Counted from the stretch's first letter, positions 28,106 to 53,079 are shown. The stretch: 64,000 nt of DNA from Candidatus Latescibacterota bacterium (GCA_965237525.1 CBDEFO010000006.1:413434-477433); one strand, 5' to 3'. The notes: generated by a model from the sequence alone, not told the origin. A program made the numbers and translations.

Positions 28106-28180
28106 TTTCCCAAATAGGAAAATAGCGGAAGATAGCGAACCCTGCGGTTTGACTAACCACAGGGTTTGTTTTATATTTAT
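28106..28180 (+). promoter_or_regulatory. Promoter motif copy 1, upstream of terS
   Basis: GCGGAAGATAGCGAACCCTGCGGT-TTGACT(28149)-17-TATATT(28172). Confidence 0.7.
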
Positions 28181-28225
28181 GTCTGTACGGTAAATAGTGA
28201 ACTTTTGTTTAGCAAGGAAGGTGCT

Positions 28226-28633
28226 ATGTCTGATTTTAAACCGAATCAAAAACAAAAGGCCTACTTTGAGGCGCTGATGGATGCAGATGTCCAAGGAGAT
28301 AGGTCAAAGGCGCTTAAGAAGGCAAAGGTCAGCATAACGCTTTATAACAAATGGCAAAGGGACAGCAGCTTGGTGGATTTCGAGCAGGACCTTACGGAGC
28401 AGTACCTGAGGTCTTTGGAGTTCAAGTTCGTTATGAGATTACAAGAGCAGATGGATGAGGGGAATATGACTGCTTTGAGTCTTTATCATAAGATACTAAG
28501 TGAGATTAAGGATAAAAAGGTAGAGGAAGTAAGCAGCGGAGAGGATAAGCAGAGATTGATCAGAAGTGAACTTGAGGACCTGATCGAAGGAAAGATCGAT
28601 GAACTCAAAGAAGCGCTACAATCAGAAAGTTGA
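28226..28633 (+). CDS. Terminase small subunit-like HTH protein
   Basis: RBS AAGGAAGG; HTH-like ALKKAKVSITLYNKWQRD; overlaps terL. Confidence 0.6.
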   Translation: MSDFKPNQKQKAYFEALMDADVQGDRSKALKKAKVSITLYNKWQRDSSLVDFEQDLTEQYLRSLEFKFVMRLQEQMDEGNMTALSLYHKILSEIKDKKVEEVSSGEDKQRLIRSELEDLIEGKIDELKEALQSES

Positions 28634-30161
28634 GGCTGTCATTGATGAACTCGAACGGCAGGCTGAATGGCTTCCGTCCGTCCTTGCAAAGTATGAGCCT
28701 CATCAAAAGCAGAGGCTATTTCACAGATCGACTAAGCGTAATCGTTGGTTTATCGCAGGAAATAGAGCTGGGAAGACAGAGGCTGGCGCTGTAGAGGCGG
28801 TTATGTTCGCTCTGGGAAGACATCGCTTTACTCCCCAGCGGAATATCCCAGTCCCAAATTTCGGGTGGGTGGTGTCGTCAGACTTTTCTTCGTCAAGGGA
28901 TGTCGCAGAAGGTAAGATCAGAAAATATCTTCCCGAATCTGAGATAGATGTCTGGAACAGAACCGACCGGATCGTTAAGCTCAGAAATGGGTCAGAGATA
29001 GGCTTTAAGTCGTGCGACTCCGGAAGAGACAAATTCCAGGGCGTAACAAGACACTGGATATGGTTCGATGAGGAGCCGCCGGAGGATGTCTATCGCGAGT
29101 GTTTTATGAGAACAGTTGACGTAAAGGGCGAAATCTGGGGGACTATGACACCCCTTAAAGGGTTCACATGGTTCTATAGGCACATATACAAAAATAGCTC
29201 TGACCCTGATATAGCGATATTTTCTGCGGCGCTCCACGATAATCCTTACATCCCCAAAGAGGAAATAGAACGGGTGGAACGGAACTATTCAGAAGAGGAG
29301 AAGGACATAAGGGTCAGGGGGCGCTTTGTCTCCATAAGTGGAAGATGTGTGTTCGATACCGTCCTCCTGAGGGTGTCGTTAGACGGTTGTAGGGATTGTT
29401 TGACGAGAGGCTTTCTACATATGGACACGATTTCTTCCGAAGGGTTCAGACCTCCCGATCTACCTGCGCGTTCGGACACGCGTTCTAGGCCCGTCCTGGA
29501 ACATTCCAAAGATGGGCCATTAACGATATGGGAGCCTCCGCAGAATGGCGCTCTTTACGTGATCGGCGCCGATGTATCAGAGGGACTTGAAAAGGGTGAT
29601 TACTCGTCCGCTCAAGTGGTCAGAAGAGATACGGGGGAGCAGGTGGCTGAATGGCACGGCCATACCGATCCTGATCTGTTCGGGATCGAACTTTTTAAGT
29701 TAGGGAGGTTCTACAACGATGCCTTTGTAGGTGTGGAGGCAAATGGCCACGGTTTGACTACTTTGGTTACGCTTAAGCGCTACCTTGGCTATCCCAATGT
29801 CTACTACCGCCAGACAGTGGACAGGGAAACTAAAGGCTCACCGTCAAGGTATTCCCGAAAATTAGGATGGCTGACTAACGCCAGAACTAAGCCCTTAATG
29901 ATCGACGAACTTGCGGGAGCATTAAGAGATGAGGGGGTTACCCTGAGCAGCAGCGAGACTGTGGAGGAGATGTTTACTTTTGTGAGAGATGAGACTGGCG
30001 GTATGGGTGCGCAGGAAGGATGCTACGATGATAGAGTGATCGCTCTGGCTATTGCCCTGCAGATGCTCAAGACCGCACCTGTGATGCCATCACCGCGGGT
30101 CGGCAGTACAACTGCTGGAAGACGACAAGCGTTGACCCGAAATAGGATCACAGGATACTAA
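28599..30161 (+). CDS. terL: Terminase large subunit
   Basis: PHQKQ, AGNRAGKT (Walker A), WFDEEP (Walker B), TMTPLKG, GADVSEG..GDYS, GVEANGHG, YDDRVIALA. Confidence 0.92.
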   Translation: MNSKKRYNQKVEAVIDELERQAEWLPSVLAKYEPHQKQRLFHRSTKRNRWFIAGNRAGKTEAGAVEAVMFALGRHRFTPQRNIPVPNFGWVVSSDFSSSRDVAEGKIRKYLPESEIDVWNRTDRIVKLRNGSEIGFKSCDSGRDKFQGVTRHWIWFDEEPPEDVYRECFMRTVDVKGEIWGTMTPLKGFTWFYRHIYKNSSDPDIAIFSAALHDNPYIPKEEIERVERNYSEEEKDIRVRGRFVSISGRCVFDTVLLRVSLDGCRDCLTRGFLHMDTISSEGFRPPDLPARSDTRSRPVLEHSKDGPLTIWEPPQNGALYVIGADVSEGLEKGDYSSAQVVRRDTGEQVAEWHGHTDPDLFGIELFKLGRFYNDAFVGVEANGHGLTTLVTLKRYLGYPNVYYRQTVDRETKGSPSRYSRKLGWLTNARTKPLMIDELAGALRDEGVTLSSSETVEEMFTFVRDETGGMGAQEGCYDDRVIALAIALQMLKTAPVMPSPRVGSTTAGRRQALTRNRITGY

Positions 30162-30536
30162 ACAAGTAGAGAGTAGACAGCAAACAGTAGACAGGTGATA
30201 CAACCCCCCATCCCTTGCGATTGCTTCGCTATCCCCGATTGAATCTATCGGGGGCTGACTTGGCGAACCAACCCACTATGAGTCGTTTTGAAAACTCCAT
30301 CGATTCCAAAGACCTCTGCAAAAAAATATTCTAAACCCACAAACCCCAATTGACAGAGTATCTGTCGCTCCATCAGGGGGGTGAGTATGCTGGGATTGTA
30401 GCCAGGAATTCTATGTACGTGCTGATAACGTCTGTTGCCCGTATTACCTGAAAGGGTGATCGTTATTTTATGAATGCGCCGGTTATGCGGCGATATCATT
30501 TCATTTCAACTGTATTATTCGTTCGGTTTAAAAAAA

Positions 30537-31106
30537 CTACGGGCAGTGATCTGATATATACATACCAATGGCTAAACCAATGCCTAACAAGAGCATATAC
30601 CCCAGGGAGAGATATACCGGCCATATCACGAAAGACCATAAGACTTCCTTCCCATCGGTCCTGGGATCTATCACCGACCGCTTCGGATTCTTAGGGTCAT
30701 AATAGCTCCAGAGCTCCTTGTTTGGTAGGTATTGCTGCATCTTATCCCTTTTTCTTATCTTCCTTAGCCATAAATTTCTCTCAGCCTTATCTTTTTTCAG
30801 CTTCCACCGTTCGATTGTGCTCTGATGAGGAAGCCGAAAAAAATCCTCTTGAAGGTACAAGGTCTGGCTGGATTGGTACTTGACCCCCAAGACCTCATAT
30901 TCATAAAGCACTTTGGGGATCAATACTCCATACCTATCGTCGGTTTCGGGATTCCTGTGCTCAAAATCCAGGATTTCTGATTTTAGTATAACGCCCTTCG
31001 CTTGAGGCCATCTCTTTCTAACAAAGCCTCTCAGGACCTCGCGTATACCACGAAGGATGCAGGCTGCACCGATGACAACCAGACCTATGGCCCACCACTC
31101 CATCAT
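30537..31106 (-). CDS. DUF3592-type membrane protein
   Basis: N-terminal TM, WPQAKGVILKS, YEYEVLG, YYDPKNPKRSVI, C-terminal TM. Confidence 0.7.
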   Translation of the reverse strand: MMEWWAIGLVVIGAACILRGIREVLRGFVRKRWPQAKGVILKSEILDFEHRNPETDDRYGVLIPKVLYEYEVLGVKYQSSQTLYLQEDFFRLPHQSTIERWKLKKDKAERNLWLRKIRKRDKMQQYLPNKELWSYYDPKNPKRSVIDPRTDGKEVLWSFVIWPVYLSLGYMLLLGIGLAIGMYISDHCP

Positions 31107-31558
31107 ATCACTATCTCAATTGTATTCTATTTATTCTGCAAGCAACCCAAATCCGGGTCTTGTGCTACCTATGCCCGTTTGGGATGGATTCTGTATAGTG
31201 CCTCGGTTGCCGCCCAACTAGGGCTTATACCGTTTTCTATGCTAAGAACCTATATGCAGCTATTTGAGCTATATAAGACCCCACTGAAATATTAGAGGAT
31301 GTCGCTAAATTAGTTGTGTAGTGCCCCCTTGGAAAGCGATATCGATTAAGCAACATGAGGCAGCAGACAAACTTCCTTCTGTACAAAGCTCGATCTTGAA
31401 ATACTTGTCGCTCTGTCAAGAGGAGCGGTACGAAAGACGCTTCGGAGTCCCATAATGCCAAACTTGTAATTCCCCTGAAGCAGAGTCATTACCGCTTAGT
31501 CAAATTCCTCCTCTGACTCTTGGAAATAAAACCTTGTTGATGTCCGCACACATTCAAA

Positions 31559-31667
31559 CCGTCATTCCCCATATCACATTCATGAAGGATTATATTTCGA
31601 TACAATCTTGTTAGTGAATGAATATTATCACTTCTATATTTATCAACAAGTACCTTTTTCAATCAAA
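31559..31667. repeat. ~110-bp direct repeat, copy 1 (copy 2 at 35229-35337)
   Basis: ccgtcattccccatatcacattcatga..tatcaacaa near-identical in both places. Confidence 0.85.
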
Positions 31668-32003
31668 ATAGCATATTCCTCTGAATTATCACCTTCTTTG
31701 TATGTAAATCCTCCAATTAGACGCACTTTGTCTAAAGTGAGCACTCTTGTAAATGACCAAAAAGAAAGCCCGCCAGAAATGACGGGCTTTCTTGCTTTAC
31801 AAAGCGCCGAAGGCATTTGGGTGAAAGAAGCGAACCGAAAAACACGCTTTATACGCCGTCGCCCCTCTATCACTTGAATTGGAAGCAGAACGACACGTGC
31901 ACTCTGAAGCGTGATGTTGTGCTCCTTCAACTTCTCCATAGATATGCACCTCTTTTTGCCCGACTTCGACTAAAGGTGCTGACCTGGATAACTCTACCCA
32001 AAC

Positions 32004-32933
32004 TCAGGAGTCTGATTTACCCATTCCAATGACTTCGTAAAGGGTGTGTTCGCCGCTTTTTCCCCTTAGCGTGATGGGAAAGCTTCTGTTCACCCGCACG
32101 TGCTTTTTCACCTGGATGTAAGTGGCTTCCGAGATAAGGAACTTGGCGCCCACTTCTTTATTCACGTCCTCAATACGGCTAGCGATGTTCACTGAATCGC
32201 CGACGGCCATCACCTGCTCCATATTGCGGCAACCAACGGTACCCACCACAACTTCTCCGTAATGCACCCCGATAACGATCTGGAATCTTGTTTCATAGGT
32301 AGCCTCTAGGTAGCAATTGAGCTGTTCCACTTCCACAAACATCTCGAGACCTGCTTCGACAGCTCGTAACGCTGCTCCGGAGGGCTCCTCCATCCCAAAC
32401 AGAGCCATCAGCCCATCTCCCCTGTAGTCTCCGATGTAACCGCCGTGGCGATTTATCACCTGACCCATTCGAAGGAAGTATTTGTTCATCACATGGATGA
32501 CATCGTATGGAGGTAGGGCTTCAGCAAAAGCGGTGGACCCACGGATATCTGCAAATAGGATGGCAACCTGTTTCTCTTCGCCTATATACCCGGGTGTCGC
32601 ATTAGCTCCTAATTGGCTCGTCAGTTCTGCATCCTCTTCATCTAGCACCAATCGTCGCAGTTTCACGTTTCCGGTAACTGTGGTCTGGCAAGCCAGCCGA
32701 ATTGTCGGACCAAAGCGCAATCCCTCAGAAAGAGCTTGCTCTTTAGCATTTCGGGGAGAACAGAATTCGAGGCCCTCCAGAATCATCACACGACATGTGG
32801 AGCACCGGGAATTCCCACCGCAGGCATGCGTATGAGGAATATCAACTTGCAATGATGTCTGGAGAATGGTTGTCTCTGTATCCGTCTCTACTTCCCTCTC
32901 ATCGGACAGATAATAAATGTGCGGCATATCCAT
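32004..32933 (-). CDS. 2Fe-2S ferredoxin-fused class III adenylate/guanylate cyclase
   Basis: CGGNSRCSTC..RLACQ; FADIRGST, GDG, GVHYG, GDSVNIASRIE. Confidence 0.88.
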   Translation of the reverse strand: MDMPHIYYLSDEREVETDTETTILQTSLQVDIPHTHACGGNSRCSTCRVMILEGLEFCSPRNAKEQALSEGLRFGPTIRLACQTTVTGNVKLRRLVLDEEDAELTSQLGANATPGYIGEEKQVAILFADIRGSTAFAEALPPYDVIHVMNKYFLRMGQVINRHGGYIGDYRGDGLMALFGMEEPSGAALRAVEAGLEMFVEVEQLNCYLEATYETRFQIVIGVHYGEVVVGTVGCRNMEQVMAVGDSVNIASRIEDVNKEVGAKFLISEATYIQVKKHVRVNRSFPITLRGKSGEHTLYEVIGMGKSDS

Positions 32934-33101
32934 CTCCCATAGTATACAAAGGTGATTTAGATTGTCTCACCTGGCAGGCACTTTCGGCCAACTCCTCGGC
33001 ATAGCTGAAGTTCGCCGAAGGCATTTGGGTGAAAGAAGCGAACCGAAAAACATGCTTTATGCGTTGTTGCTCCTCTGTCACTTGAAATAGATGACTTTTT
33101 G

Positions 33102-34865
33102 CTAAGGCTCTTCATACAGGCGTTCGCCGCGGTAGAGCCGGAGGGCAATCTGATACGTCTGCCCTTGCGCCCGAACCGTCGGAGCATGGGCTGCCAGATA
33201 CCGCGCTGCAGCCAACAGTACGTGCGCCTCAGCTGGCGTCCCGCGCAGCAGCCCGTATTGACGGAAGGACGCTTCGACCATCTGAATCGTGTGAAAGTCG
33301 CGATCCTCGCGCAGCAGCAATCTTCCCAGCACGGCCAACAGCCGATCCGGGCTGCCGCCACTGTACAGATAGCGTGCGACCAATTCGCCTGCCTTGTTCA
33401 CTTGCTGCTGCTGGTCCAACAGCGCTGAGAGTTGATCCAGAAGCGCTTCAGGATTCTTGACTGTGTCATCTGGCCCGGGCAGGGGAACCGCGGGCACGTT
33501 CAAAAAGCGGTCGAGGTATATACTCATCGCCACGTCGAAGACGCCTCGCAGCAGCTCCGGCGACGCTATCCGCCTCAGCCCCTGGTGCACGGCGTTGGCA
33601 AACGTAAAGGTGTGCAGTGCCGTGTCCCAGTCTGCGAACTCGTTGCTGATATGGAAGCGGGCAATGCGCAGCGCTGCAGCGTAAGCCACCGCACTTGCCA
33701 ATTCCTCTTCGCTACCGCCCTCCCGCAACGCCTCTAACAGTGCGTCGGCAATGGCCTGCGGGTCCTCACCCAAGAGCACTGGCACCAGTGTGTATCGCGA
33801 CCCGTCCATGTCCCGCGCTGACCCTGGCCCGTCTCCAGCGCGGCTGGCAGCGCCTCGAAGGCGCGCTCCAGGATTATAATCAGATCCACCGGGTTGCGCC
33901 AAGTGTTGGATTCCTCCATCCGATCGGCGTTGGCATAGCTGGAGACCAAGCTGGTCAGTACCGGTTCTGCGTACTCCCACCCCGCTGTATCGAGTGCCTC
34001 CAGCGCCTTGTTGGTAAAGTCAGCAACATGGCCGATGTCGATATAGCGGTGGTCGGTAGCGGCGGCAAAGAGCATATCGGCCATCTGCCGATGGTCGGCG
34101 CCGGCTCGCACGGCCGATACAATACAACGCTCGGCACCCTCAGAGTCACGCACTTCGACGAACTGGCGGAACCAGCGCTTGAGCGTATCCAGGTCCGTCG
34201 CGAGGGTCGGGAGCGGGTGAATCTCGAAGCGCGGCGGCATGCCAGCACACTCCCCAGCAACGGCCGCCAGACCGTGGTAGAGGGCGCGCGGTCGGTCTTC
34301 AGCATCCAGATGTGGCAGCAGGTTCATCATGCAGGTGTGCATGGTCAGACCTTGCCCCCAGCCGGACTGCCGATAACGCGCCCCGAAGTCGAGCCCAATG
34401 CGAAATGGCTCAGCCGGTTCTCCGTCATCATCTAACAAGGTGATGATGGCCTTCCCAATGACCAGTGAGATGGCTCGCTCCAGCCCATCCTGCAGACGCA
34501 GACGCTGACGAGCGCGCGGGTCTACGCGCAGCGCCAGGTCCACCCACACCTCACCGTCGCGGATTTGCACAGGGAAGCTGCGCACATCGTCGGCCCACTG
34601 GTCGAACGTTCCACCGCTGGCCAGGTCAAAGCGCGCGTGGTGCCAATGACAGGTCAGAATACCGTTTTTGACAGTGCCGCGGTCGAGAGGGAAGCCCATG
34701 TGCGGGCAGCGGTCGTCCACAGCATAGATCTTGTCCCCCTGGGCGAACAGCGCCAGCGTGTGCCCATCGACCTGGACGTGCACAGCCGGTAGCTTGCACC
34801 TCAGCCAGACGGGCGGCACGCACGTAGTTTTCGGCGCTCGTTGACATCTTGAACTTTTTACTCAT
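33102..34865 (-). pseudogene. Rieske 2Fe-2S + helical (questin-oxidase-like) protein, two frameshifts
   Basis: CPHMGFPL..CHWHHARFDL; homologous text continues across three frames, with shifts near 34790 and 33790. Confidence 0.75.
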
Positions 34866-35370
34866 ATTGCATCACCCTCCTGTAAGATAGCGTATAACGA
34901 TCTTTATTCTGGATTTTGGGACCAAAATTCCAAAAAATTGCCATCCAGATCATAGAAGTAATATGCAGTGGATGTGCTCCTTCATATCAGTACCTCATCT
35001 CAGGGTGAATGCCTTTTTATTCTTTATTTTCTGACATATAGCTCAGATAATACAGTAGTTCACATCTTTGTGTGCCATTCGCATGTTTCCAAATCTCAAC
35101 CGCTATATCAGCCAACGTCAGAGTATGCACATCATCAACACCCCCTGCCACCAGTTTCAATAGAGCGTACTCGAAATCTTCCTCATTAACAGACTGGGCA
35201 TAGATGCTTTCATCAAACTCGATATTAGCCGTCATTCCCCATATCACATTCATGAGGGATTATATTTCGATACAATCTTGTTAGTGAATTAATATTATCA
35301 CTTCTATATTTATCAACAACTACTTTTTTAAATCAAACCCAGCTATCCAGTCCCTTTGCTCTACAAAACT

Positions 35371-36339
35371 TTAGCGCCCCTGTTGCTGAGAGATTTCATC
35401 GCGCAGGTGTGCAAGGCTTTTCTGGACTTCCTCCGGATTCCCACCTATCTGTTTAAGCCATTCTTGCGTCTCTTTTTCCTTCAGAGTCCTCTCGGCTTGT
35501 TCTAACGCTTCCGACGCCTTGTCAAGTTTTATGCCGAACTTGAGACGCCATTTGACAGCATCAGTGTAAGCCACTCCGGACCACTGCTTTGCGCTTCGAC
35601 TATAGGTCAGATGCGCTTGTAGGTAGCGGTCTATTAGTTCATCGAGGTACTCGTCATCCGCCAACCCACTTTCCTGCTCTGCTAATTTCAGCATTTTTGT
35701 ATGCGCCTCGGCATACCATAGCGAAAGTTCAGGGAAATCCTCAGCCGTAGATTCATCAATTATGCGCCGGTAATAGTCCCATTTTTCACGCGGCTTATCG
35801 CTCTTCTCTGCTAAACCCAACAATGCTGAAAGCCAGGCCTCAGTTTTGGGATATTGCAGCATCCTGGTAAATAGATCTTCCGGGACATTATCGGTGCGCC
35901 CATACCCGGGAAGAAACATATAGCCCCAATAGGCTGTATCCAACGCCTTTGGTGTTTCTTTGTGCGATTCGAGGAACGCTTCGATTTTACTACTTATTTG
36001 TTGGCGCAATTCAGGTGGAGCCAAGATTGTTATTTTTTGGCGCGCTCCAGGTGGAGGCACAATTTCTACGCGAGTCCCCCATAGTTCGGCGAGAGTTGCC
36101 CAGCGTATCGTGTAGGCATCATAGGCATCTCGGTCGGCTTCTATCGCACGAGTGCAGGCCGCCAAAGCCTCCTTATATTCTTTCCTCTGCACATGCGCCC
36201 TGGCTTCGGAAATCGCTTTTGCAGCGTCTTCCTGACGCTTTGACTCCGTAGCACCCTGTTCTTTTTCTCCTCCGCAGCTTGCCAAGGATAGAGAGATCAC
36301 AATCACGCAAGCTGAGGTTATGAAAGAGACTTTGTTCAT
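35371..36339 (-). CDS. TPR-like lipoprotein
   Basis: Lipobox LASC; YKEALAACTRAIEAD helical repeats. Confidence 0.65.
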   Translation of the reverse strand: MNKVSFITSACVIVISLSLASCGGEKEQGATESKRQEDAAKAISEARAHVQRKEYKEALAACTRAIEADRDAYDAYTIRWATLAELWGTRVEIVPPPGARQKITILAPPELRQQISSKIEAFLESHKETPKALDTAYWGYMFLPGYGRTDNVPEDLFTRMLQYPKTEAWLSALLGLAEKSDKPREKWDYYRRIIDESTAEDFPELSLWYAEAHTKMLKLAEQESGLADDEYLDELIDRYLQAHLTYSRSAKQWSGVAYTDAVKWRLKFGIKLDKASEALEQAERTLKEKETQEWLKQIGGNPEEVQKSLAHLRDEISQQQGR

Positions 36340-36629
36340 GTCTTACCCTCCTTAGTTTAAGGCCCTTAAGGCTTTCTAAGCCCATCAGGCTTTCTAAGCC
36401 CGTAAGGCATTGTAAATCATTATGATATACACAGAATGATATAAACAATCATCAGGAAGATAATACGAACATCAAATTGATAAGTCAAGGACTATTTCAA
36501 GCAACTATTGTTATTCGGAAAGGTTGCATTTAGCGAATTAGTCGGACATTCGGCAAACCTGAAGCCTCCTAATAGGCTATCGAAAGTAAATGTAGAGAGA
36601 GGATCATGCCGCCCTTGGAGCGAGTGGAC

Positions 36630-36750
36630 CGTCGCCGACTGAATCTATCGGGGATCAACCTTTCGGGGGCAGGTAGTAGGGTTTCATGGCATCCCTGGAT
36701 TCCCGTTTCCACGGGAATGACATTCATTTCGGGGGCAAGCCTGGCCCCTA
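36630..36750. repeat. Composite repeat with dRS3-like ATTCCC-N8-GGGAAT core (second copy at 40080-40200)
   Basis: ccgactgaatctatcggggatcaa...catggcatccctggattcccgtttccacgggaatgacattcatttcggg in both. Confidence 0.8.
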
Positions 36751-36783
36751 CGATTCCTTACCGAACGCACTCGCTATTTTTTT

Positions 36784-38798: not shown

Positions 38799-39042
38799 GG
38801 AAAAGACCAGGCGTATAGAGGACACTGAGGTCATAGAGGAACTCATGCGCCACCCCGGATGGGAGGTACTATCCAAAAGGATTGAGGCTTACAGGGAAAT
38901 GGAGACGAACAAGGTCATAAGTAGCCATTCGTGGGAAGAGGTGCTCTATCATAAGGGGAAACTCCACGCGGCTTTAGAGATTATGAGTATCCCCAAACAG
39001 GTGATAAAGGAGGGAAAACTCGATGATGTCTCCACAGACTGA
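38779..39042 (+). CDS. Small conserved phage protein downstream of portal
   Basis: ELMRHPGWEVL...YHKGKLHAALEIMSIP. Confidence 0.6.
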   Translation: MMKRSSEEKTRRIEDTEVIEELMRHPGWEVLSKRIEAYREMETNKVISSHSWEEVLYHKGKLHAALEIMSIPKQVIKEGKLDDVSTD

Positions 39043-43291: not shown

Positions 43292-44254
43292 TTGATGGGA
43301 TTGACAAATTTCGGTGTATTAAGCGTTGACGCTATCATCGGGGGGAATAGTTGCTATTCCTCTCTTACAGGTAAGACATTCTTTGTAGCGCCTACCACAG
43401 GGCATGTAGCTCATCCGGAGGGCAAGGGTCCTTCTGATAATAACGATGGGGAAAGCCCTTTAACTCCCTTTGCTACCGTCCAAAAGGCTCTCGATTCGTG
43501 CGTATCAGGAAGAGGGGATACAGTTGTGCTTTTGCGGGGGACGCATACACCCGGTGGTGTTCTTACTATTGATAAGGACGATGTCCGGCTTCTGGGCTAT
43601 CCCCCCGCACCCTACGGGTACGGCTGTCCATCGTTGGACGGGCCAAGCGGTACTGTCAATGAACTAGTGGCAGTAGAGGCTGATAATGTAGAAATAGGGT
43701 TCTTCAGGATCGGTGTAAGTGCTCAAGCTCTCCACGGTATCATTGACATCGCAGATACAGCAGCGACCAGCTATACGTATCTTCACGACATGTTCGTTGC
43801 AGGATGGAACGAACAGGCTGGAGGCAACGGAATACGTCTGGGAGACGGTACAAACGACCCCGTCGAGTGTATAATCGAGCGGTGCTTTTTTGCTCCCAGA
43901 TTTGACGGCGCTGACATCGTCTGGGATTCGACAAGGCCGATCATAAAGGACTGTTTCTTTATGATGGACGACGGGGATACTGCGATAACTGTGCCGACCA
44001 AGACAAATGCGACGACCAGATACGGTGCGTTCATAGTAGATAACTTCTTCCTGGGCGCAACTGACGCCGGTGATGAAGTGGGAATCACCTTTGAGGCGGC
44101 AGAGGCAAACTCCCCATTGGGAGTCATAGCCAGAAACTACTTTGCCAACTGCTCGGCGACAGCCGTCACTCAGGACAGACACCCTGAGCGAGTGGTTGAA
44201 AACTACGTCGGAGACACAGCAGGCGGCGCTAAAATCGATCCTACGGCAGTATAG
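43292..44254 (+). CDS. Virion-associated parallel beta-helix (pectin-lyase-like) protein
   Basis: SDNNDGESPLTPFATVQKALD..GRGDTVVL motif followed by beta-helix-like repeats. Confidence 0.65.
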   Translation: MMGLTNFGVLSVDAIIGGNSCYSSLTGKTFFVAPTTGHVAHPEGKGPSDNNDGESPLTPFATVQKALDSCVSGRGDTVVLLRGTHTPGGVLTIDKDDVRLLGYPPAPYGYGCPSLDGPSGTVNELVAVEADNVEIGFFRIGVSAQALHGIIDIADTAATSYTYLHDMFVAGWNEQAGGNGIRLGDGTNDPVECIIERCFFAPRFDGADIVWDSTRPIIKDCFFMMDDGDTAITVPTKTNATTRYGAFIVDNFFLGATDAGDEVGITFEAAEANSPLGVIARNYFANCSATAVTQDRHPERVVENYVGDTAGGAKIDPTAV

Positions 44255-44492
44255 TAGATAGGGGAAACATGTAGACAGTAGAACAGTAGACAGGAGGCCT
44301 ACAGTAGAACAGTAGGTAGGAGGACCCCCTTTTGCGACCCGTTTTGGTTAGGCCCCCTTAGCCGACCCGCTGTGGTCGTGCCATCTGTCTCTATCTACTG
44401 TCTACTCCCGATTGAACCCCCCTGTAGACCCCCTTATTAAGGGGGGAATAATAAGGGGGTCTACATAAACATAAACAAAAAGGTGATAGATT

Positions 44493-44762
44493 ATGGCAGG
44501 ATTTACTAAAGAAAGAACGACCTCAGGGCAGGTTACTACAGGACTTGCCACAGTACAAGGGGCCACGCTGACTGCTGGCGCTGATGCTGCTTCGGCGGCT
44601 CTATATGACAATACAGCAGGCAGCGGTAATCCGATAGTGACGCTTAAGGCATCCGCGAACACTACGGTCAACGCCTCTTTCCCAGAGGGAATCAGAATTG
44701 ACATCGGTGTCTATGCGACTTTGACGGGGACGAGCCCGTCTGTCTTTGTGCATTATGCGTAG
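44493..44762 (+). CDS. Small virion protein
   Basis: LYDNTAGSG..PEGIRIDIGVYATL; RBS AAGGTG. Confidence 0.55.
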   Translation: MAGFTKERTTSGQVTTGLATVQGATLTAGADAASAALYDNTAGSGNPIVTLKASANTTVNASFPEGIRIDIGVYATLTGTSPSVFVHYA

Positions 44763-44910: not shown

Positions 44911-45873
44911 ATGCCATCCAGAACTTTGCTATCGCTCGTAAATGAGGTGCTCACAGAGGTCCACGAGCCGACTTTAGGCTCTATTCCAGGGAGTCCGTCG
45001 GGGCTTACCAGGGTCAAAATAGATCAGATCAATCGGGCGCAGGAGGATGTGCTTTCCAGAAGGCGATACCGCTGGCAGCAGAAGACAGGTGTCTTTCAGA
45101 CGAAGGCCGTCTATAGTGCCGGTACTGTGAGCGTGACGAACGGTGATGCGACAGTGACGGGAACAGGGACGGCCTTTTCGGCAAACGTAAACGCAGGCGA
45201 CCGGTTCAGAGTAGATGGCGACGATACGTCCTACGTCGTAAGTTCCATAACGAACGATACATCACTTGAGCTTACCACAAACTATATCGGCACGACTGCA
45301 ACGGGTAAGAGCTATTCCATCTTCCAGAGGGAGTACAGCCTCGCCTCTGATGTGGACGAGATAATGGAGATGGTTCACACGAAGCTACCGGGGGCAAGTC
45401 TCATTCTGGGTGGAGACAGCTTCCCTGCTTTAAAGAAGATGGACATAAGGGACCTGGAGCAGAGCGTCCCCGATCTGGATGCCAATACTTCTGGGATTCC
45501 GAGCATCTACTGTGAAGTGAGAGACTCAAATGGGGCGCTTCAGGCTCTGTTCTATCCGTACCCCAGAGAGGTAATACAGATTTCCTACCGCTACTACAAG
45601 ACCCTTTCGGAGCTTTCTTCGACAAACGATACATCAGGTCTGCACGCTAAGTACCACAGGCTGCTTTATCTTAAAGGGCTGGCAGCGGCCAACAGATGGC
45701 TGGATGACCCTTATGCCGAAGACGCGGAAAGGCTGTACGAAAGCCGATTGAATACCCTCGTCTGGGAGGACGCCAGAGACTACGATGGAGGCATCAGAGT
45801 AAAGCCCGTAGGCCTGAGAAGGAAGGGACGACATCTGAGGGGATTCTCTAACATTCTATTTGACAGGACGTAA
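44911..45873 (+). CDS. Head-tail adaptor-like protein with Ig/FCCH-like insertion
   Basis: LLSLVNEVL..INRAQED; GTVSVTNGDATVTGTGTAF; FYPYP..ISYRYYK. Confidence 0.6.
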   Translation: MPSRTLLSLVNEVLTEVHEPTLGSIPGSPSGLTRVKIDQINRAQEDVLSRRRYRWQQKTGVFQTKAVYSAGTVSVTNGDATVTGTGTAFSANVNAGDRFRVDGDDTSYVVSSITNDTSLELTTNYIGTTATGKSYSIFQREYSLASDVDEIMEMVHTKLPGASLILGGDSFPALKKMDIRDLEQSVPDLDANTSGIPSIYCEVRDSNGALQALFYPYPREVIQISYRYYKTLSELSSTNDTSGLHAKYHRLLYLKGLAAANRWLDDPYAEDAERLYESRLNTLVWEDARDYDGGIRVKPVGLRRKGRHLRGFSNILFDRT

Positions 45874-45988: not shown

Positions 45989-47497
45989 ATGACAACGTCT
46001 AAAAGGAAAAAGAGCTACATCGAGGTCCCGTATGTTGACAACACGGGAGGCCTAAACAGCAAGGCATCTGTCGGGTCGTTTCCAGATAAGGACGCTGTCC
46101 AGTTGGACAATATTCATCTGGACACAAACGGCGCATGGGTAAAGAGAAAGGGGCACGAAAGGCGAAACTTGACCTCTATCTCTGCCTCTATAACCGGAAT
46201 CTACGACTACGTTAAGAAAGATGGGACAAGGGCGATTATCGTCACGGCGGGTACGCAGGTCTACAAGTACAACACTTCGACTCTGGAGTTGGATTCTATT
46301 GCTACGGGCTTGACCAACGGCCTGCTGTGGGGCTTTGAGACCTTTACCGATCTATTGATTCTGACCAACGGGACGGATAACGTCAAGAAATACGACGGCA
46401 CCACCTTCGCCGATCTGGGAGGGTCTCCTCCAAAAGGCAAGTTTTTGAAGCTATTCAACAACTATCTCTTCCTGGCGGGGAATTCTACCGATCCATCCAG
46501 GCTCTACTACTCCAACAAGAACAATCCTGAGGTATGGACTTCCGGCGACCACATAGATATAAATCCGGACGATGGAGATCAAATCAGCGGACTTGCTGCC
46601 CTCTTCGATCAGTTGGTCATCTTCAAGCGCAACTCTATATATACGCTGTCGGGCGATTCGCCCTCGATCTTCAAGGTATCCCAGATCACGTCTGACGTGG
46701 GATGCCTCGCGCAAAACTCCATACAGAACATCACGGATGATTCATCTGGCCCTGACAGCCTCTACTTCTACGGCGAAAGGGGAGTCTACGCCTTTCGGGG
46801 AACAGGAGTGGACTACATCTCCGAAAAGATCGAGGACCTCATCTCGTCTGGCCCTGACAGTCCGACCCCGCTTAATCTGACGCGTCTGTCCAGGGCCGCA
46901 TCTTGCCACAACCGAAAGAGAAATCAATACTGGATCGCTCTGACGCCGTCGGGAGGCTCGAATAATACCATCATCTTCGTCTACGACTATCTCAACAATG
47001 CCTGGACGAAGTTCACAGGGATCACGGGGAACGCACTTGCCTACGTTGCAGATCCGCTTCTGTCGGGCATCCCGATAGAGTCACAGATAGTATGGACAGG
47101 AGATGGGACAGGCTTCGTCTCACAGGCCGACACGGGCCTCAACGATCCGCCCTCGGCAGACATAAGCATAACGATTAAGACCAAAGCCTTCGATTTGAAG
47201 CGTCCCCGATTTAATCTTTCTGGGATAGCGACCAAGCTTTTCAGATATGCCTACATCTTCGTGGAGGACGCCCACGCAAGCGGAGTGACGTTGACAGTGG
47301 AGTGGTTCGTAGATTTTGCGGCGACAGCCACAGGCAGCTACTCTCTTACGGGAGTAAACTCCAGAAGCGTCCACAGAGTGCCGCTGGACGGTGCGGCAGG
47401 AAGATACATACAGTTTAAGATCAGCGAGTCCTCACAGCGAGACTTTTCGCTCGGCGGACTGTCCATTGTGGCAAACGAAAGGGGATTCAGAGGATAG
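45989..47497 (+). CDS. Podovirus tail nozzle / DNA stabilization protein (P22 gp10/T7 gp12-like beta-propeller)
   Basis: TGGLNS, KRKGH, RLYYSNKNNPEVW, LVIFKRNSIY, VGC, ISEKI, GRYIQFKI. Confidence 0.7.
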   Translation: MTTSKRKKSYIEVPYVDNTGGLNSKASVGSFPDKDAVQLDNIHLDTNGAWVKRKGHERRNLTSISASITGIYDYVKKDGTRAIIVTAGTQVYKYNTSTLELDSIATGLTNGLLWGFETFTDLLILTNGTDNVKKYDGTTFADLGGSPPKGKFLKLFNNYLFLAGNSTDPSRLYYSNKNNPEVWTSGDHIDINPDDGDQISGLAALFDQLVIFKRNSIYTLSGDSPSIFKVSQITSDVGCLAQNSIQNITDDSSGPDSLYFYGERGVYAFRGTGVDYISEKIEDLISSGPDSPTPLNLTRLSRAASCHNRKRNQYWIALTPSGGSNNTIIFVYDYLNNAWTKFTGITGNALAYVADPLLSGIPIESQIVWTGDGTGFVSQADTGLNDPPSADISITIKTKAFDLKRPRFNLSGIATKLFRYAYIFVEDAHASGVTLTVEWFVDFAATATGSYSLTGVNSRSVHRVPLDGAAGRYIQFKISESSQRDFSLGGLSIVANERGFRG

Positions 47498-47584: not shown

Positions 47585-48199
47585 ATGGGATTCATTGCCA
47601 AACCTTACCAGATAAGAACATTAGGCGGAAATAGCGCATACGCCATAAACCGCAACTTTGACGTCATCTATACCGAGTTCAACGGGAATATAGACATTGA
47701 TAATCTGAAGGCCGGCAATTTGGTTCGGGCATCGCTCTGGGGAGCAATCAGGCTGGATGGGACGAATCCACCCGCCGAAGCCCTTGCAGGCGATTATCCC
47801 GGGCTGGACTTCTCTGCGACTGCTACAAATACCGTCAGGGCATCGTTTGAAGTCCCGCACGACTGCGACATAACCAAGCCCATAGCGATAGTCCTATCAT
47901 ACGTTATGACCACAGGCCATAGCGGGAATGTGGAACTGTCCTTTTCCCGTACTGTTACGAGCCTGAACTCATCGCTGGAAACGCCGGCATCATCTGCCAA
48001 CACCTTGAATCCTGATGACAGCGGCAATGTGTATGAACAGGACAGCACCTTTAACGTTCCGGCTGCTGCACTCTCAGCAAAGACCGATATTGCAGCCATC
48101 AAGTTGGAGCGTCAGGGGGCAAGTGCGAACGACACTCACACGGGGCTGTTCAGATTATTGGATCTGGAGATAGAGTATACCACGGATGGAACTGTGTAG
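47585..48199 (+). CDS. Putative tail/virion protein
   Basis: INRNFDVIYTEFNGNID N-terminus typical of tail-appendage proteins. Confidence 0.5.
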   Translation: MGFIAKPYQIRTLGGNSAYAINRNFDVIYTEFNGNIDIDNLKAGNLVRASLWGAIRLDGTNPPAEALAGDYPGLDFSATATNTVRASFEVPHDCDITKPIAIVLSYVMTTGHSGNVELSFSRTVTSLNSSLETPASSANTLNPDDSGNVYEQDSTFNVPAAALSAKTDIAAIKLERQGASANDTHTGLFRLLDLEIEYTTDGTV

Positions 48200-48321: not shown

Positions 48322-48573
48322 ATGTCAAAAATTGAACTCACAGCCGAATGGGACAAGGAGAAACAGGAAGTCATCAGATACCATCCGCCTCGGCGGGTCT
48401 GCTCCTTTTGCTACGAGGGCATGTTATACGATCCCCAAAAGGGCATATGGGAGTGCATACATTGTATATGTAGACAGGGAGTGGAGGAGATGCCCTGTCT
48501 CCCCCGATTGAATCTATCGGGGGCTACTGTCTACAGTCTACTTGGATGTGAAGGGCGGAAGGGATGTACATAG
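48322..48573 (+). CDS. Small Zn-ribbon protein, 3' end invaded by palindrome
   Basis: CSFC...WECIHC. Confidence 0.45.
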   Translation: MSKIELTAEWDKEKQEVIRYHPPRRVCSFCYEGMLYDPQKGIWECIHCICRQGVEEMPCLPRLNLSGATVYSLLGCEGRKGCT

Positions 48574-49049
48574 TCTGGCATGCCAGCGATTCAACGTTCG
48601 GATCGGCGATCACAATAGATGGCTGGCACAGAGAAAGAGGCTGGGCAAGGATCGGATACGGAGCCGTCATCCTGAACGGTTATCTGACCTCACAGGACAG
48701 GAAAGAAAGGCGATACGCAGCGCATCTGGATGGTCTGCTGGAGACGGGCAGGCCGCTGGATCAAGATTCGGAGCTGGAGGCAGATGAGATGCAGGCTCAC
48801 GCCTACGGTCTGAATAGAGAGTCCATATCCATCTGCCTTATCGGAAGTGGCGGAGACTACACACTCAACCAGATCTGCACTGCCCTCCGGCAGACCCAGA
48901 GATGGATGAGACAGTTCGGCGTTCGCCCCCAGAACGTGATAGGGCACTACGAGATCGGAAGGGTCAAGCCGAACTTTGCAACCAGTAAGACGTGCCCCGA
49001 TATAGATATGGATCAGATTCGAGAGATCATCGGGAGGTTCTCAAAGTGA
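48564..49049 (+). CDS. N-acetylmuramoyl-L-alanine amidase (T7 lysozyme-like endolysin)
   Basis: IDGWHRERGWARIGY, AHAYGLNRESISICLIG, VIGHYE, KTCP. Confidence 0.85.
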   Translation: MYIVWHASDSTFGSAITIDGWHRERGWARIGYGAVILNGYLTSQDRKERRYAAHLDGLLETGRPLDQDSELEADEMQAHAYGLNRESISICLIGSGGDYTLNQICTALRQTQRWMRQFGVRPQNVIGHYEIGRVKPNFATSKTCPDIDMDQIREIIGRFSK

Positions 49050-49288
49050 ATGATAACGACAGACAAAGAGGTCGCTTTGAGGGTGAAGTTGTAGCCCGGC
49101 TGGACAATCTGAACGAATACATCGAATCGGTGAGCCGTGATGTGAAGGAGAATAATCGAATGATCATCGGGATCAAAGAGGATCTCGCTCAACTCAAGGT
49201 CAAATCGAGCCTCTGGGGGTCAATAACAGGTGGAGGAGCAGCAGGAGTCATGATGGCGCTAAAATCCATTTTACGAGGTGACAAATAA
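49046..49288 (+). CDS. Coiled-coil + C-terminal TM protein (holin/XhlA-like)
   Basis: Follows the amidase; LKVKSSLWGSITGGGAAGVMMAL. Confidence 0.5.
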   Translation: MNDNDRQRGRFEGEVVARLDNLNEYIESVSRDVKENNRMIIGIKEDLAQLKVKSSLWGSITGGGAAGVMMALKSILRGDK

Positions 49289-49534
49289 TGTTCGACTGGA
49301 TTATGGGAATAGGGCCAGGAAGGCTGGCGCGGCGCAGTCACAGGGATAGGTCTCTTTGCCACCGTGTGGTATAAGCGGGCCAGCAAGGCTGCAAAAGAGT
49401 GGGAGGATGTAGTAAATAGCATAAGAGCCAACAGAAAAGACGGCTGGACTCAGGAAGAAGTGGAGGAAGTCATAGAGGAACTGGCAGAGGCGTTTTCGGC
49501 GACTGTGCCCTTCTTCGGGAGGTTGTTGAGATGA
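49288..49534 (+). pseudogene. Small membrane protein, apparently frameshifted
   Basis: MFDWIMGIG, then the +1 frame reads GAVTGIGLFATVWYKRASKAAKEW..FFGRLLR*. Confidence 0.4.
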
Positions 49535-49956
49535 AAATATCCACGTTTACGGCGTTCTTGATGTTCATTATCGGCTGTGGAGAAGCGCCGTTAGAGTCAA
49601 TAGAAGAAACGCTTGCAGCAGAGGAAGTAGAACACTTTCTGGTCGGCGATCCGTGGGTTGCCACAGGCACAAATAGATACGGCAATTGGACTAACACCAA
49701 GACTTACGAGGATAGCGGCAGGTTCATCCACTTGTTGCGGTATGACGCCCGATCCCCGATTGAATCTATCGGAGATGCGGGGCAGGAGTTTCAAGAGGCG
49801 GGCAATTGGAGGCTGAAAGAGGTCAACAAGGCTATAAAGGTCGTCCACCTGATGGACGATGGTCACGTCTTTTTTCTCACGGTTCTCTATATAGACGATG
49901 ACTACCTGGAACTGGGGAGCCTGCAATACGTGCGAGAGAGCAAGTGGCAAAGGTAG
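49531..49956 (+). CDS. Lipoprotein
   Basis: Lipobox IIGC; in-frame palindrome insert SPIESIGD. Confidence 0.6.
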   Translation: MKISTFTAFLMFIIGCGEAPLESIEETLAAEEVEHFLVGDPWVATGTNRYGNWTNTKTYEDSGRFIHLLRYDARSPIESIGDAGQEFQEAGNWRLKEVNKAIKVVHLMDDGHVFFLTVLYIDDDYLELGSLQYVRESKWQR

Positions 49957-49971
49957 TCAGGTAGTTTGCTT

Positions 49972-50397: not shown

Positions 50398-50475
50398 TGT
50401 TCAACCCTTCCTGATGTCAACGTGGTAGTATAATGAATTCGTGGGGGAAAGTCAAGAGAAAATGGGGAATGCAAA

Positions 50476-52728
50476 GTGGCAAATGAACTCTTAGAGGCGG
50501 CCCTGTGCTATGAATCCATCGGGTGGTCTGTGATCCCAGTGCGGCCGGACAAGAAGCCCTATATCTCGTGGCGTGACTACCAGAAGGTCAGGGCGACGCA
50601 GGAGCAGATTAAGCTGTGGTGGAGAGAATATAAAGACGCACAGATCGGGATCGTGACAGGCCAGATTTCCAATATCGTGGTGGTGGATCTGGACGCAGCA
50701 GAAGGCATAACCTCATTCGACAAGCTGGACGACGGGCAGCCTACTGTATGCAGCAAGACCGGCTCCGGCGGCTGCCACTACTTCTACGCTATGCCGAAAG
50801 AAGAAGATGAAGCCAAACTGCTGCGCAATTTCGCCAGACGGATGGGCATAGACCTGAGAGCAAACGGCGGATACGTGGTCGTGCCTCCGTCGCAGAATCA
50901 AAAAGGGCAATATGAGTGGCGCATCTCTCCCGACAACCAGAACCCCTCAGACTGTCCAGTGTGGGTAATAGATGCGTGCAAAGTAGGTCAGACATTCCGC
51001 CCGATTGAATCTATCGGGGGCTGCGGGAAACAAGAACAGACATTCTTGTCTGTTCTACCGTCTTTAGAAAATGGCGTGGATAAAGGCAGTAGAAACGATT
51101 CTGCTGCAAGACTTGCCGGACACTTCTTCAGGCAGGGGAAGACAAAGACAGAGGTCAGCGCAGAGTTAGTCGAATGGAACGCAAAGAACAGGCCTCCGCT
51201 TGAGCTTTCGGAGCTGGAGGGCGTCGTGGAATCCATCGGCAGGACGCGTGCCTACAAGGCAGGCACGAATGACTGCAACGCAGGCGCCCATGCCTGCAAG
51301 GCAGAGGCAAAGAGTGACGTCCTGTGTGCTCTCTCTGAGGGCGAGCGCGGAGATGCCAAACTATTCGTCAAGCTCTACAGAGACAGATTCTGCTACGACA
51401 GCTCCGAAGGCACATGGTACGAGTGGAAGGGGCACTTCTGGGCGCCCGACAGGATCAGGGAAGCGAGGGCCTCCGTAGAGGGCGTGATCCAGATCTATAA
51501 AGACGAACTCCACAGACAGAGTCACACAGACAACGAGACGAAGACGAAGGACCTGACGAGGAGAATCACACAGCTCAGCACGAGGAGGCGGGCAGACGAA
51601 TGCCTTGAACTCTCAGCAAGCGGCGCTAACTCCCTGGCGATAGAGGGCCACGAATGGGACGTAGACCCCTACCTTCTGGCATGCCCAAACGGCGTCATAG
51701 ACCTCAGAACGGGAGAGTTGAGACAAGGCAGGCAGCGGGAATACATAAAGACAGTCTGTCCCACGGAGTTCAAGGGTACAGACATCGGCTGTCCCAAGAA
51801 GGGGACAGACGCTCCCTGTCCCGCATGGGAGGAGTTCCTGTTTCAGATATTCGACGAGGATCAGGAGTTGATCTCCTACGTCAAGCGGCTGCTGGGCTAC
51901 TCTATGTTGGGGCTTTCGACACAGCACGAATTCTATATCTTCTGGGGACAGGGAAGAAACGGCAAGGGGACCTTGTTTCAGGTGCTGTCAGATGTGCTGG
52001 GTCCCTATGTCTCGCAGGCCCCCAAGGAGATGCTCCTCTATAACCGCTTTCGGCCCGCAGCCTCTTCTCCCAGATCGGAGCTGATGGCCTTGAGGGGCAA
52101 ACGCCTCGTCTGGGCGTCGGAATCCGATGAAGGACGGCATCTGGACACCAGCCAGGTCAAGTGGCTCTCAGGCGGAGACTCCCTTGTGGCAAGAGAGGTC
52201 TACGGGAGGCACCAGGTGGAGTTTCGGCCCACGTTTACGCTCTTCCTCCAGACAAATCATAAGCCGAAGGCGAACGCCTACGATTACGCCCTCTGGGAGA
52301 GGATCAGACTGATACCCTTTAATCTCTCATTTGTGGACGACCCGACAAGAGACCACGAAAGGAAAAGAGACCCGAATCTGGTGGATAAATTGAAAGTAGA
52401 GGGATCGGGGATACTCTCGTGCCTCGTCCAGGGCTGCCTCGACTTCCAGGAACACGGCCTTCTGCCGCCTGAGACTGTAAAGCTGGCCACGAAGGCGTAT
52501 AAAGATGAGGAGGATATTTGGGGCCAGTGTACAGAGGAGTGCTTTAGAAAAGACGAAAAGGCAAAGGTTGAGGCGGGATCAGCTTATCCAATGGTTGTAA
52601 ACTGGTTCGACGAAAATGGATATGATTCGCCCAGCAAACAAATGTTCGGAAAAAGAATGGGAGAACGGTTCCACAAGGTTAAGCTTAGCGGAAAGGTTTA
52701 TTACCTGGGTATAGGAATGCTTGATTAG
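50476..52728 (+). CDS. Primase-polymerase / PriCT / D5-type SF3 helicase (P4-family primase)
   Basis: VVVDLD, TGSGGCHYFY, GGYVVVPPS; GSRNDSAARLAG; LACPNGVIDLRTG; GQGRNGKGT; VKWLSGGD. Confidence 0.9.
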   Translation: MANELLEAALCYESIGWSVIPVRPDKKPYISWRDYQKVRATQEQIKLWWREYKDAQIGIVTGQISNIVVVDLDAAEGITSFDKLDDGQPTVCSKTGSGGCHYFYAMPKEEDEAKLLRNFARRMGIDLRANGGYVVVPPSQNQKGQYEWRISPDNQNPSDCPVWVIDACKVGQTFRPIESIGGCGKQEQTFLSVLPSLENGVDKGSRNDSAARLAGHFFRQGKTKTEVSAELVEWNAKNRPPLELSELEGVVESIGRTRAYKAGTNDCNAGAHACKAEAKSDVLCALSEGERGDAKLFVKLYRDRFCYDSSEGTWYEWKGHFWAPDRIREARASVEGVIQIYKDELHRQSHTDNETKTKDLTRRITQLSTRRRADECLELSASGANSLAIEGHEWDVDPYLLACPNGVIDLRTGELRQGRQREYIKTVCPTEFKGTDIGCPKKGTDAPCPAWEEFLFQIFDEDQELISYVKRLLGYSMLGLSTQHEFYIFWGQGRNGKGTLFQVLSDVLGPYVSQAPKEMLLYNRFRPAASSPRSELMALRGKRLVWASESDEGRHLDTSQVKWLSGGDSLVAREVYGRHQVEFRPTFTLFLQTNHKPKANAYDYALWERIRLIPFNLSFVDDPTRDHERKRDPNLVDKLKVEGSGILSCLVQGCLDFQEHGLLPPETVKLATKAYKDEEDIWGQCTEECFRKDEKAKVEAGSAYPMVVNWFDENGYDSPSKQMFGKRMGERFHKVKLSGKVYYLGIGMLD

Positions 52729-52819
52729 GACGATAAGGACGTTTTACATGTAACTTTTCTAAAAAACGAAAGTTTTTTAATATACAAAAGTTTGCTACAT
52801 ATCGTCCTTATCGTCCTAA
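52725..52819. other. Candidate replication origin
   Basis: 17-bp perfect IR TTAGGACGATAAGGACG / CGTCCTTATCGTCCTAA around an AT-rich core, immediately after the primase. Confidence 0.55.
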
Positions 52820-52896
52820 ATGAGAGGCCATTTACTTTATGATTGACATCTGATGGTTGGAGAAAGACAAACTCACGTATTCAAAAGGAGGAAAAG

Positions 52897-53079
52897 ATGG
52901 ATACCCAGGAAATGCTTACAGTCAAGGAGGCGGCTAAGTTCCTAAGGTGCTCAGAAAGGCACCTGCGTCAACTAATACACTGCGGATTGCTCACAGCCTA
53001 CAAGCCGGGGAAACAGTACCTCCTGCCCAGAAGCAGTGTCCTCGGCTACTTTAGGAGATCCAAACACGCCCCCTTTTAG
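52897..53079 (+). CDS. Excisionase-family HTH_17 DNA-binding protein
   Basis: MLTVKEAAKFLRCSERHLRQLIHCGLLTAYKPGKQYLLP. Confidence 0.8.
   Translation: MDTQEMLTVKEAAKFLRCSERHLRQLIHCGLLTAYKPGKQYLLPRSSVLGYFRRSKHAPF

Follow-up and report, generated by a model that had tools for sequence, protein, structure and literature searches.

Is a cluster of podovirus genes that lacks an integrase the remains of a prophage, or a particle system that its host has kept? The question is raised by a gene cluster at 28,106–53,079 in a 64,000-nt stretch of a Candidatus Latescibacterota genome (GCA_965237525.1 CBDEFO010000006.1:413434-477433; hereafter the window, which is the terminal 64 kb of contig C6 of genome G000). 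An earlier note, made from the sequence of the window alone, had taken the cluster for a vertically inherited podoviral particle system resembling gene transfer agents (GTAs) and partly decaying in this strain. Our comparison with related genomes, phages and sequencing runs indicates that it is likely a GTA-like system which was kept until the split of the two species that carry it, and which is now broken in the species of the window.

Conservation of the cluster in a sister species

The sole relative of G000 in the same family among 168 genomes of the phylum, only 52 of which reach 90% completeness with contamination of no more than 5%, is the sister species G001, represented by a closed 4.54-Mb Latescibacterota chromosome. 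Twenty 20-kb samples of G001 gave 220 open reading frames (ORFs) and 159 single full-length orthologues, of which 27 were dropped as broken or short, and the 132 single-copy orthologues kept have a median identity of 96.5%. The search of related genomes proposed in the earlier note located the cluster in G001 at the same site, after the relA, SDR and metallo-hydrolase genes, with the same gene order, identical internal junctions, the same tetratricopeptide repeat (TPR) gene inserted, and shared host repeats. The capsid profile matched only these two of the 168 genomes.

The synonymous divergence (dS) of 17 virion and lysis genes was 0.097 (bootstrap 0.070–0.127), the same as that of the 132 host orthologues (0.097), and their ratio of nonsynonymous to synonymous divergence (dN/dS) was 0.22 (0.175–0.305), compared with 0.25 for the host and with a neutral expectation of 0.86 calculated from the measured transition bias. 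Eleven of the 17 genes were singly below the neutral value at p<0.05, with dN/dS of 0.14 for the large terminase gene (terL) and 0.17 for the portal gene. Since the deletions and inserts are common to both species, the dS of 0.097 accrued after grounding of the cluster in the chromosome, which supports vertical inheritance of the virion and lysis genes under purifying selection after that event. A dN/dS near 1, which the earlier note had named as the mark of an ordinary decayed prophage and which a neutral remnant would have shown since grounding, was thus not found between the species, while within the species of the window variation now looks neutral (see below).

Near-identical free phages, which would likewise have pointed to an ordinary prophage, were not found: the closest capsid outside the genus was 65% identical (3700 matches), the closest terL segments reached at most 54% in 32 viral loci and at most 50% in 45 metagenome loci, and the best outside match of the nozzle protein was 36%. 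The cluster is fully endogenized: in both species it occupies the same site, flanked by host genes, with host repeats and host genes inside and no integrase or recombinase near. Each virion gene is present as a single copy in G000. The codon usage of 11 cluster genes lies at the 10th to 97th percentile among host genes, a spread so wide, with a host bias so weak, that it is uninformative. We therefore consider that the cluster is very probably domesticated in the broad sense; the claim of vertical inheritance is supported by the site, the junctions, the host-level dS, the low dN/dS and the lack of a close free relative, over the depth given by two species ~4% apart, and does not extend simply to the primase.

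Absence of integration and ejection genes

The absence of an integrase and of an att pair was confirmed. In the closed G001 chromosome none of the 15 matches to the Phage_integrase family PF00589 lies less than 300 kb from the cluster, and on contig C6 the nearest match is ~380 kb away, so that an integrase just outside the window was not found in either genome; the serine recombinase family PF07508 has no match near the cluster, and among the 20 largest repeat families listed no flanking pair of direct repeats was found apart from host repeats. No repressor was seen in the ORF lists, although no search with repressor families was made. A tmRNA gene is located at 17,973–18,329, 10 kb upstream of the small terminase gene (terS) with host genes between, and as far as seen is not an att site for the cluster.

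Large ejection-protein genes, reported as not visible in the window, were also not found on closer comparison. The nozzle and endolysin genes of G000 are only 1.07 kb apart, and G001 has the same gene content there, whereas all eight related phage elements that have at least 5 kb after the nozzle (G168, G170, G171, G172, L318, L322/L323 counted once, L324 and L329) carry large ORFs there. Two of the eight match the 'DNA ejection' family phrog_598 and one weakly matches an internal virion family, the ORFs of the remaining elements being judged by size and position only. Family phrog_598 was not found in G000 or G001 and was found in two of three control genomes; very divergent ejection genes may lie elsewhere. 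When 2238 ORFs of 191 related loci were used to look for dispersed virion genes in G000, the only matches from two or more loci outside the cluster, among the 12 of 40 subjects listed, were ssb, groES, methylases and one terminase-like remnant; matches to phrog_342 were rejected as virion genes, as these are generic lytic-transglycosylase domains. A decayed, unrelated terminase-like remnant lies at ~398–403 kb of contig C8 (L228:14370-19497) among methylase and restriction genes, near a tRNA-Thr gene.

The cluster thus differs from an active temperate prophage, having no integrase or att site and a virion set in which no ejection proteins were found, and from a phage satellite with its own integrase and primase and few or no virion genes, having a full head, short-tail and lysis set and no integrase.

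Host repeats and a shared promoter element

The presence of the host's own repeat families within the cluster was borne out by 17 palindrome matches in the window versus 0.01 expected, and the repeats at 326–510 contain the same sub-motifs. The 18.4 kb of phage DNA contain 16 short multi-copy elements, against a median of 5, with 16 or more in 14 of 243 other windows; counts based on hand-picked repeat motifs were circular and were set aside. Host palindromes are also located inside the ORFs of the scaffold (39,545–39,565), lipoprotein (49,754–49,774) and primase (50,999–51,019). The in-frame palindrome of the scaffold gene is common to G001, which has a 25-nt copy where other strains have a 7-nt unit.

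G000 contains very many copies of one 466-aa DDE transposase, four of them in the window, and the lineage looks to be degrading. Three near-identical 396-aa ORFs (18,452–19,642, 22,370–23,560 and 54,742–55,932) had no Pfam match in the copies scanned, and likely represent an insertion sequence (IS) family with an integrase core.

Both halves of the late operon, upstream of terS and upstream of the portal gene, start with the same promoter element (P1 and P2 in Table 1), and both G001 copies of the primase gene are also preceded by it. The element is genus-specific, ~60–100 nt long, and has near-consensus −35 and −10 sequences; the pattern occurs in two of the 168 phylum genomes, and a matrix derived from the four sites upstream of terS and portal gave five matches in G000 and none in three shuffled genomes. 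The other three G000 sites (C8:1182370, C3:381328 and C8:326013) precede an M6 protease gene (as is the case in G001 too), the remnant of a phage replication-O gene and a fragment of a patatin gene, while other G001 sites are at 1887675 and 628375, and no virion genes lie downstream of these other copies. The arrangement suggests that the element may co-regulate terS, portal and primase, and we count it in favour of a maintained system that terL and portal have been split by host-type genes and yet both halves begin with this element.

Loss of the system in the species of the window

The statement that most genes are full length held for 17 of 21 genes, but the broken ones are the portal, capsid, scaffold and second holin-like genes, and with stop codons in portal and capsid and a frameshift in the scaffold the strain is not expected to build particles. 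The stretch was found, whole or in part, in 14 of 15 listed runs of five studies, with no RNA run listed among these, and strain variants were compared in five runs, including X1, X2, X4 and X6. The capsid TAG is present in X1, X2 and X4, runs of three studies, and in the database protein P0001, with one X6 contig, of depth 3, having a sense codon instead. For the portal, X1 has the TAG and X2 and X4 do not, X6 being without coverage there, and the scaffold frameshift is shared by X1 and X6, with 7 extra bases in X2 and X4. In X4 the start codon of the decoration gene is altered (depth 2.8).

Among the listed coding variants within the species (n=35, there being at least that many), 29 were nonsynonymous and 6 synonymous, which differs from the 200/268 found between species (p 4e-6) and does not differ from neutral (p 0.25) in a comparison made without a host-gene control; these variants fall on both the G000 and the X2 branches. 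The decay described in the earlier note is therefore real, and 'partly' and 'in this strain' were too weak, as the capsid TAG is common to several populations and variation looks neutral. A stop or net frameshift was also found in 26 of the 159 sampled host orthologues of G000, some perhaps paralogue or assembly artefacts, a proportion close to 4/21 in the cluster, so that genome-wide drift may be the cause. Readthrough of the amber codons was rejected, as no CUA tRNA is present among the 46 tRNAs of G000 and both positions are sense codons in G001 and in other runs. Assembly error was rejected as well, because X1 contigs match G000 at these positions with 0 differences (although G000 may derive from the X1 sample) and X2 and X4 show the capsid TAG again.

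Gene content of the cluster

Pfam and PHROG scans, by which genes were named, recovered the packaging, head, short-tail and lysis genes, the P4/D5 primase-helicase, the candidate origin and the xis-like gene where they had been placed before (Table 1); the names of scaffold, decoration, nozzle and holin are partly based on position and on the usual podovirus gene order. The gene set was described as collinear, and the block is not unbroken, since ~6.5 kb of non-phage genes lie between terL and portal, which adjoin each other in the closest phage contig (L148). The TPR gene is the only gene of this insert also found in the G001 insert. The Fer2-adenylate cyclase and Rieske genes (31,746–35,051) are located ~35 kb off in G001, inverted and beside another primase-xis remnant.

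Table 1. Coordinates of the cluster genes and associated elements within the window (dN/dS between G000 and G001).
Feature	Coordinates	Strand	Evidence and remarks
Remnant of related primase-helicase gene	27937-28080	-	Not at corresponding G001 site
Promoter element P1	28097-28180	+	Repeated GGAAGAT..GCGG units, then TTGACT-17-TATATT; upstream of terS; 84/85 nt identical in G001
Terminase small subunit (likely)	28226-28633	+	Weak phrog_24579, E 2e-4; precedes terL
Terminase large subunit	28599-30161	+	Terminase_6N/6C, phrog_2; dN/dS 0.14
Non-phage insert dividing late operon	30245-36741	.	DUF3592, Fer2-adenylate cyclase, frameshifted Rieske protein, TPR lipoprotein, host repeats
Promoter element P2	36775-36857	+	Upstream of portal; 79/85 nt identical in G001
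Portal, SU10 type	36936-38798	+	TAG in frame at 38268-38270; 621 aa, intact in G001
Two small conserved head-region genes	38776-39283	+	
Scaffold-like protein	39298-40046	+	Frameshift near 39799; 248 aa, intact in G001
Phage glycosyltransferase and 149-aa gene	40226-41337	+	Order matches closest phage contig
Capsid decoration protein (likely)	41408-41914	+	phrog_37556 and position; dN/dS 0.13
Major capsid protein, HK97 fold	42257-43159	+	PF25209/PF10124; TAG in frame at 43031-43033; 300 aa, intact in G001
Beta-helix-like virion protein (likely head fibre) and 89-aa gene	43295-44762	+	Viral clusters; Beta_helix on minority of members
Head-tail adaptor, SU10 type, with inserted fibre-like domain	44911-45873	+	
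Short-tail nozzle (likely)	45989-47497	+	phrog_3287, E 1e-41
204-aa virion protein after nozzle	47585-48199	+	Viral clusters, no Pfam; dN/dS 0.18
Zinc-ribbon ORF, lysis genes and lipoprotein	48322-49956	+	
Amidase endolysin	48564-49049	+	
Holin-like gene, XhlA-like	49046-49288	+	Weak match
Second holin-like gene	49289-49535	+	Frameshifted, 16-nt insertion
Lipoprotein	49531-49956	+	Mostly absent from G001
Prim-Pol/PriCT/D5 primase-helicase, P4 family	50476-52728	+	Upstream promoter element of G001 absent here
Replication origin candidate	52725-52819	.	Inverted 9-bp iterons flanking AT-rich core
HTH_17 excisionase-like DNA-binding protein	52897-53079	+	Many decayed paralogues in G000 and G001

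The nuclease domain of terL was closest, at 35–40% identity, to that of the 933W group and related Vibrio phages, and as this group is termed headful in PMC7317114 and PMC6029569, terL may package by a headful mechanism; with regard to the placement that the earlier note had asked for, this one is by BLAST and not by a tree, and a search of solved structures gave no placement of terL. The structure model of the G001 capsid (pLDDT 90.6, 120 sequences) matches HK97-type capsids, and on this model the TAG in G000 would delete strands 254–297, the long C-terminal strands. A homologue of the beta-helix-like protein also sits after the capsid in L321–L323, and the 204-aa protein may form a needle or fibre base. 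In G001, at ~3.0251–3.0254 Mb, a repeat block is flanked by two copies of the first ~90 nt of the nozzle gene with its ribosome site, the second of which is complete.

Primase, candidate origin and their history

The inverted iterons of the candidate origin directly follow the stop of the primase gene, a layout which matches that of the origins of Staphylococcus aureus pathogenicity islands (SaPIs), where according to PMC9371898 the iterons are read by a C-terminal winged helix. The primase is full length in both species, with a dS of 0.33 and a dN/dS of 0.33, the closest free relative found is 48% identical, and another assembly carries a 648-aa primase. Its C-terminus and the iterons differ between G000 and G001, and there are three types of iteron in three copies, each primase having its own set. 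With this dS and with origin and C-terminus swapped, the primase-origin part is, by its sequence divergence, not simply co-inherited with the host.

Primase and xis remnants are dispersed at several other sites in both genomes. A second primase-origin-xis copy of G001 (L224:9749-15300, 1.888–1.893 Mb) is split by an IS, has the third iteron type and carries the promoter element. A further G001 element at 3.934–3.942 Mb (L225:9250-17262) combines integrase, Prim-Pol and HTH_17 genes, with no virion genes seen, and is a possible satellite. The coverage peak predicted at 52.7 kb was not observed, contig depth being flat across the cluster in X1 (5–10, with 9.5 on the TPR gene) and X2 (9–19, with 17.9 on that gene). 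Coverage is poorly measured by contig depth, and the system is dead in this species, so the flat depth at the origin is uninformative and neutral towards any reading.

A possible mechanism and its alternatives

From the anatomy, synteny, vertical divergence, purifying selection between species and loss in the species of the window, all established here by genome comparison, we infer how expression, amplification, packaging and delivery may have proceeded. The promoter element would be switched on in some cells, and the primase-helicase would be loaded onto the iteron origin beside it. Unable to excise, it would then amplify the neighbouring chromosomal DNA where it stands, by run-off replication. 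This DNA would be packed by the headful by the 933W-type terminase, and amidase and holin would release short-tailed particles. As no ejection proteins were found, these would probably bring DNA to the recipient envelope only, where uptake by ComEC, DprA and ComM could lead to homologous recombination, the same proteins being used for import by the Bartonella GTA (BaGTA) according to PMC6899734. The genes comEC, dprA and comM are intact in G000 and G001. We favour, at a probability of about 0.5, a BaGTA-like particle system of independent podoviral origin, working by in-place amplification, headful packaging, lysis and uptake through competence genes. A more specific version is a tentative suggestion: a self-amplifying GTA that evolved independently from a podovirus, in which one promoter drives the run-off origin and a particle without ejectosome, and in which origin and binding domain are swapped as in plasmid replicons.

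Several observations weigh against the BaGTA-like system. The competence genes are common, being above or near the cut-off in 10, 11 and 8 of 14 control genomes, so that their presence is weak support, and since podovirus ejection proteins are described as required for infectivity (PMC8954989), particles lacking them may fail to deliver DNA. The capsid relatives are phages of 35–65 kb and the locus is ~25–27 kb, so that the head might hold the whole locus, unlike those of true GTAs. The promoter element is also found upstream of non-phage genes and is thus not exclusive to the cluster. The cluster is known from only two uncultured species, ~4% apart, and was not found in 166 other genomes of the phylum, which gives little depth for co-divergence; in one of the two species the system is dead. 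Finally, the primase dS of 0.33, the swapped C-terminus and origin and the scattered remnants point to traffic with mobile elements, and the replication module, while resembling the chimeric build of BaGTA as described in bioRxiv 2024.11.20.624540, would also fit satellite traffic.

One alternative is that the locus is selfish or a helper, grounded and packaging DNA from its own terS in the style of lateral transduction, or supplying particles to primase/xis satellites, in which case selection would act on the element and not on the transfer of host genes. The size of related capsids would leave room for the locus with its flanks, the origin has been swapped, primase-xis remnants are scattered in both genomes, and G001 has at 3.934–3.941 Mb the integrase, Prim-Pol and HTH_17 element without virion genes seen. 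We nevertheless consider it unlikely, as particles without ejection genes, none of which were found in either genome, would be poor infecting vehicles, and the equality of virion and host dS is contrary to spread between lineages. Another alternative is a host that retains particles or lysis for an end other than gene transfer, such as release of DNA by programmed lysis, particles that act as decoys or in adhesion, or the killing of competitors. In its favour, the loss of ejection proteins removes the normal route of DNA into a diderm cell (PMC8954989), and the endolysin, head and tail genes are under purifying selection; it is unlikely in that terL, portal and an intact primase with matched origin are conserved too (dN/dS 0.14, 0.17 and 0.33), which would be costly if DNA loading were unneeded.

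An ordinary cryptic prophage that is decaying now, and whose low dN/dS dates from its time as an active phage or reflects exchange with free relatives by recombination, would explain the four of 21 genes broken in G000 and the neutral-looking listed variation, and grounded prophages are common (PMC6379469 and PMC13492144). This we hold improbable, since the shared deletions, TPR insert, intragenic host repeats and second promoter place grounding before the species split, no close free relative was found, and the breakage rate is in line with the host background of G000 (26/159).

The self-amplifying GTA suggested above would, if real, be the first of its kind in Latescibacterota, still alive in one species and only recently lost in the other; title listings of the literature on Latescibacterota with prophage or gene transfer agent contained nothing on the cluster. 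If the BaGTA-like reading is right, run-off replication combined with a particle, known from Bartonella, would have arisen a second time, in a different phylum and out of a short-tailed phage without relation to the first, and the dropping of ejection proteins would mark the point where infection gave way to delivery that depends on competence. The two species together offer a before-and-after case of upkeep and loss, with selection between species and neutrality within one.

Comparison with known systems

Vertically inherited, phage-derived head, packaging and lysis genes are a feature which the cluster shares with RcGTA and CcGTA (Rhodogtaviriformidae), where they are under host control. The capsid described here matches PF25209/PF10124 and not PF05065, the RcGTA capsid family, and the locus has its own candidate origin. 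The RcGTA particle has a 38-nm head, a 49-nm tail and a 4-kb cargo (PMC9662315). A podovirus-like GTA has already been published: FpGTA of Faecalibacterium (PMC12946183) is likewise integrase-less and built of head and packaging genes of short-tailed phages, with two operons, a monoderm host, 40-nm particles and ~9 kb of host DNA, and the section of that source consulted describes no replication module.

Among phages, the HTVC023P/CRP-901-type podoviruses have capsids 35–43% identical to that of the cluster, the gene order from head to nozzle is as in uncultured relatives, and the similarity to 933W-group phages is in the terminase nuclease (35–40%); in contrast to the cluster, which lacks ejection-region genes, an integrase and most early genes, these phages are complete (35–65 kb), and the relatives examined keep large ejection-region genes. 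The SaPI/P4-type replicons share the fused primase-helicase followed by inverted iterons and an AT-rich core (PMC9371898), whereas here the module is without integrase or att and adjoins a complete set of virion genes. Grounded cryptic prophages (PMC6379469 and PMC13492144; Bobay et al. 2014 as cited there) are similarly integrase-less, vertically inherited and partly deleted, but the models cited in PMC13492144 have such prophages lose their capsid, terminase and lysin genes and retain accessory ones, and here capsid, terminase and lysin genes are those under selection.

We do not file the cluster as a GTA, as full endogenization is the only one of the six criteria in PMC9662315 that was observed, and homology to caudoviricete proteins is seen from the genes alone. 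On anatomy the closest analogue appears to be BaGTA (Bartogtaviriformidae; bgtA-K and the ror run-off locus), in which, as here, chromosomal, non-excising virion and lysis genes occur with a nearby phage-type origin, in the cluster a candidate one, and with ComEC, ComM and DprA (PMC9662315, bioRxiv 2024.11.20.624540 and PMC6899734). There was no sign of homology to BaGTA: the capsid alignment found 79 GTDB loci, none of them from Bartonella, in a pattern-limited search in which BaGTA proteins were not directly compared. Unlike in BaGTA, a single 25-kb block here contains both the replication and the virion genes; the block has a shared promoter element, and no antiterminator was seen in it.

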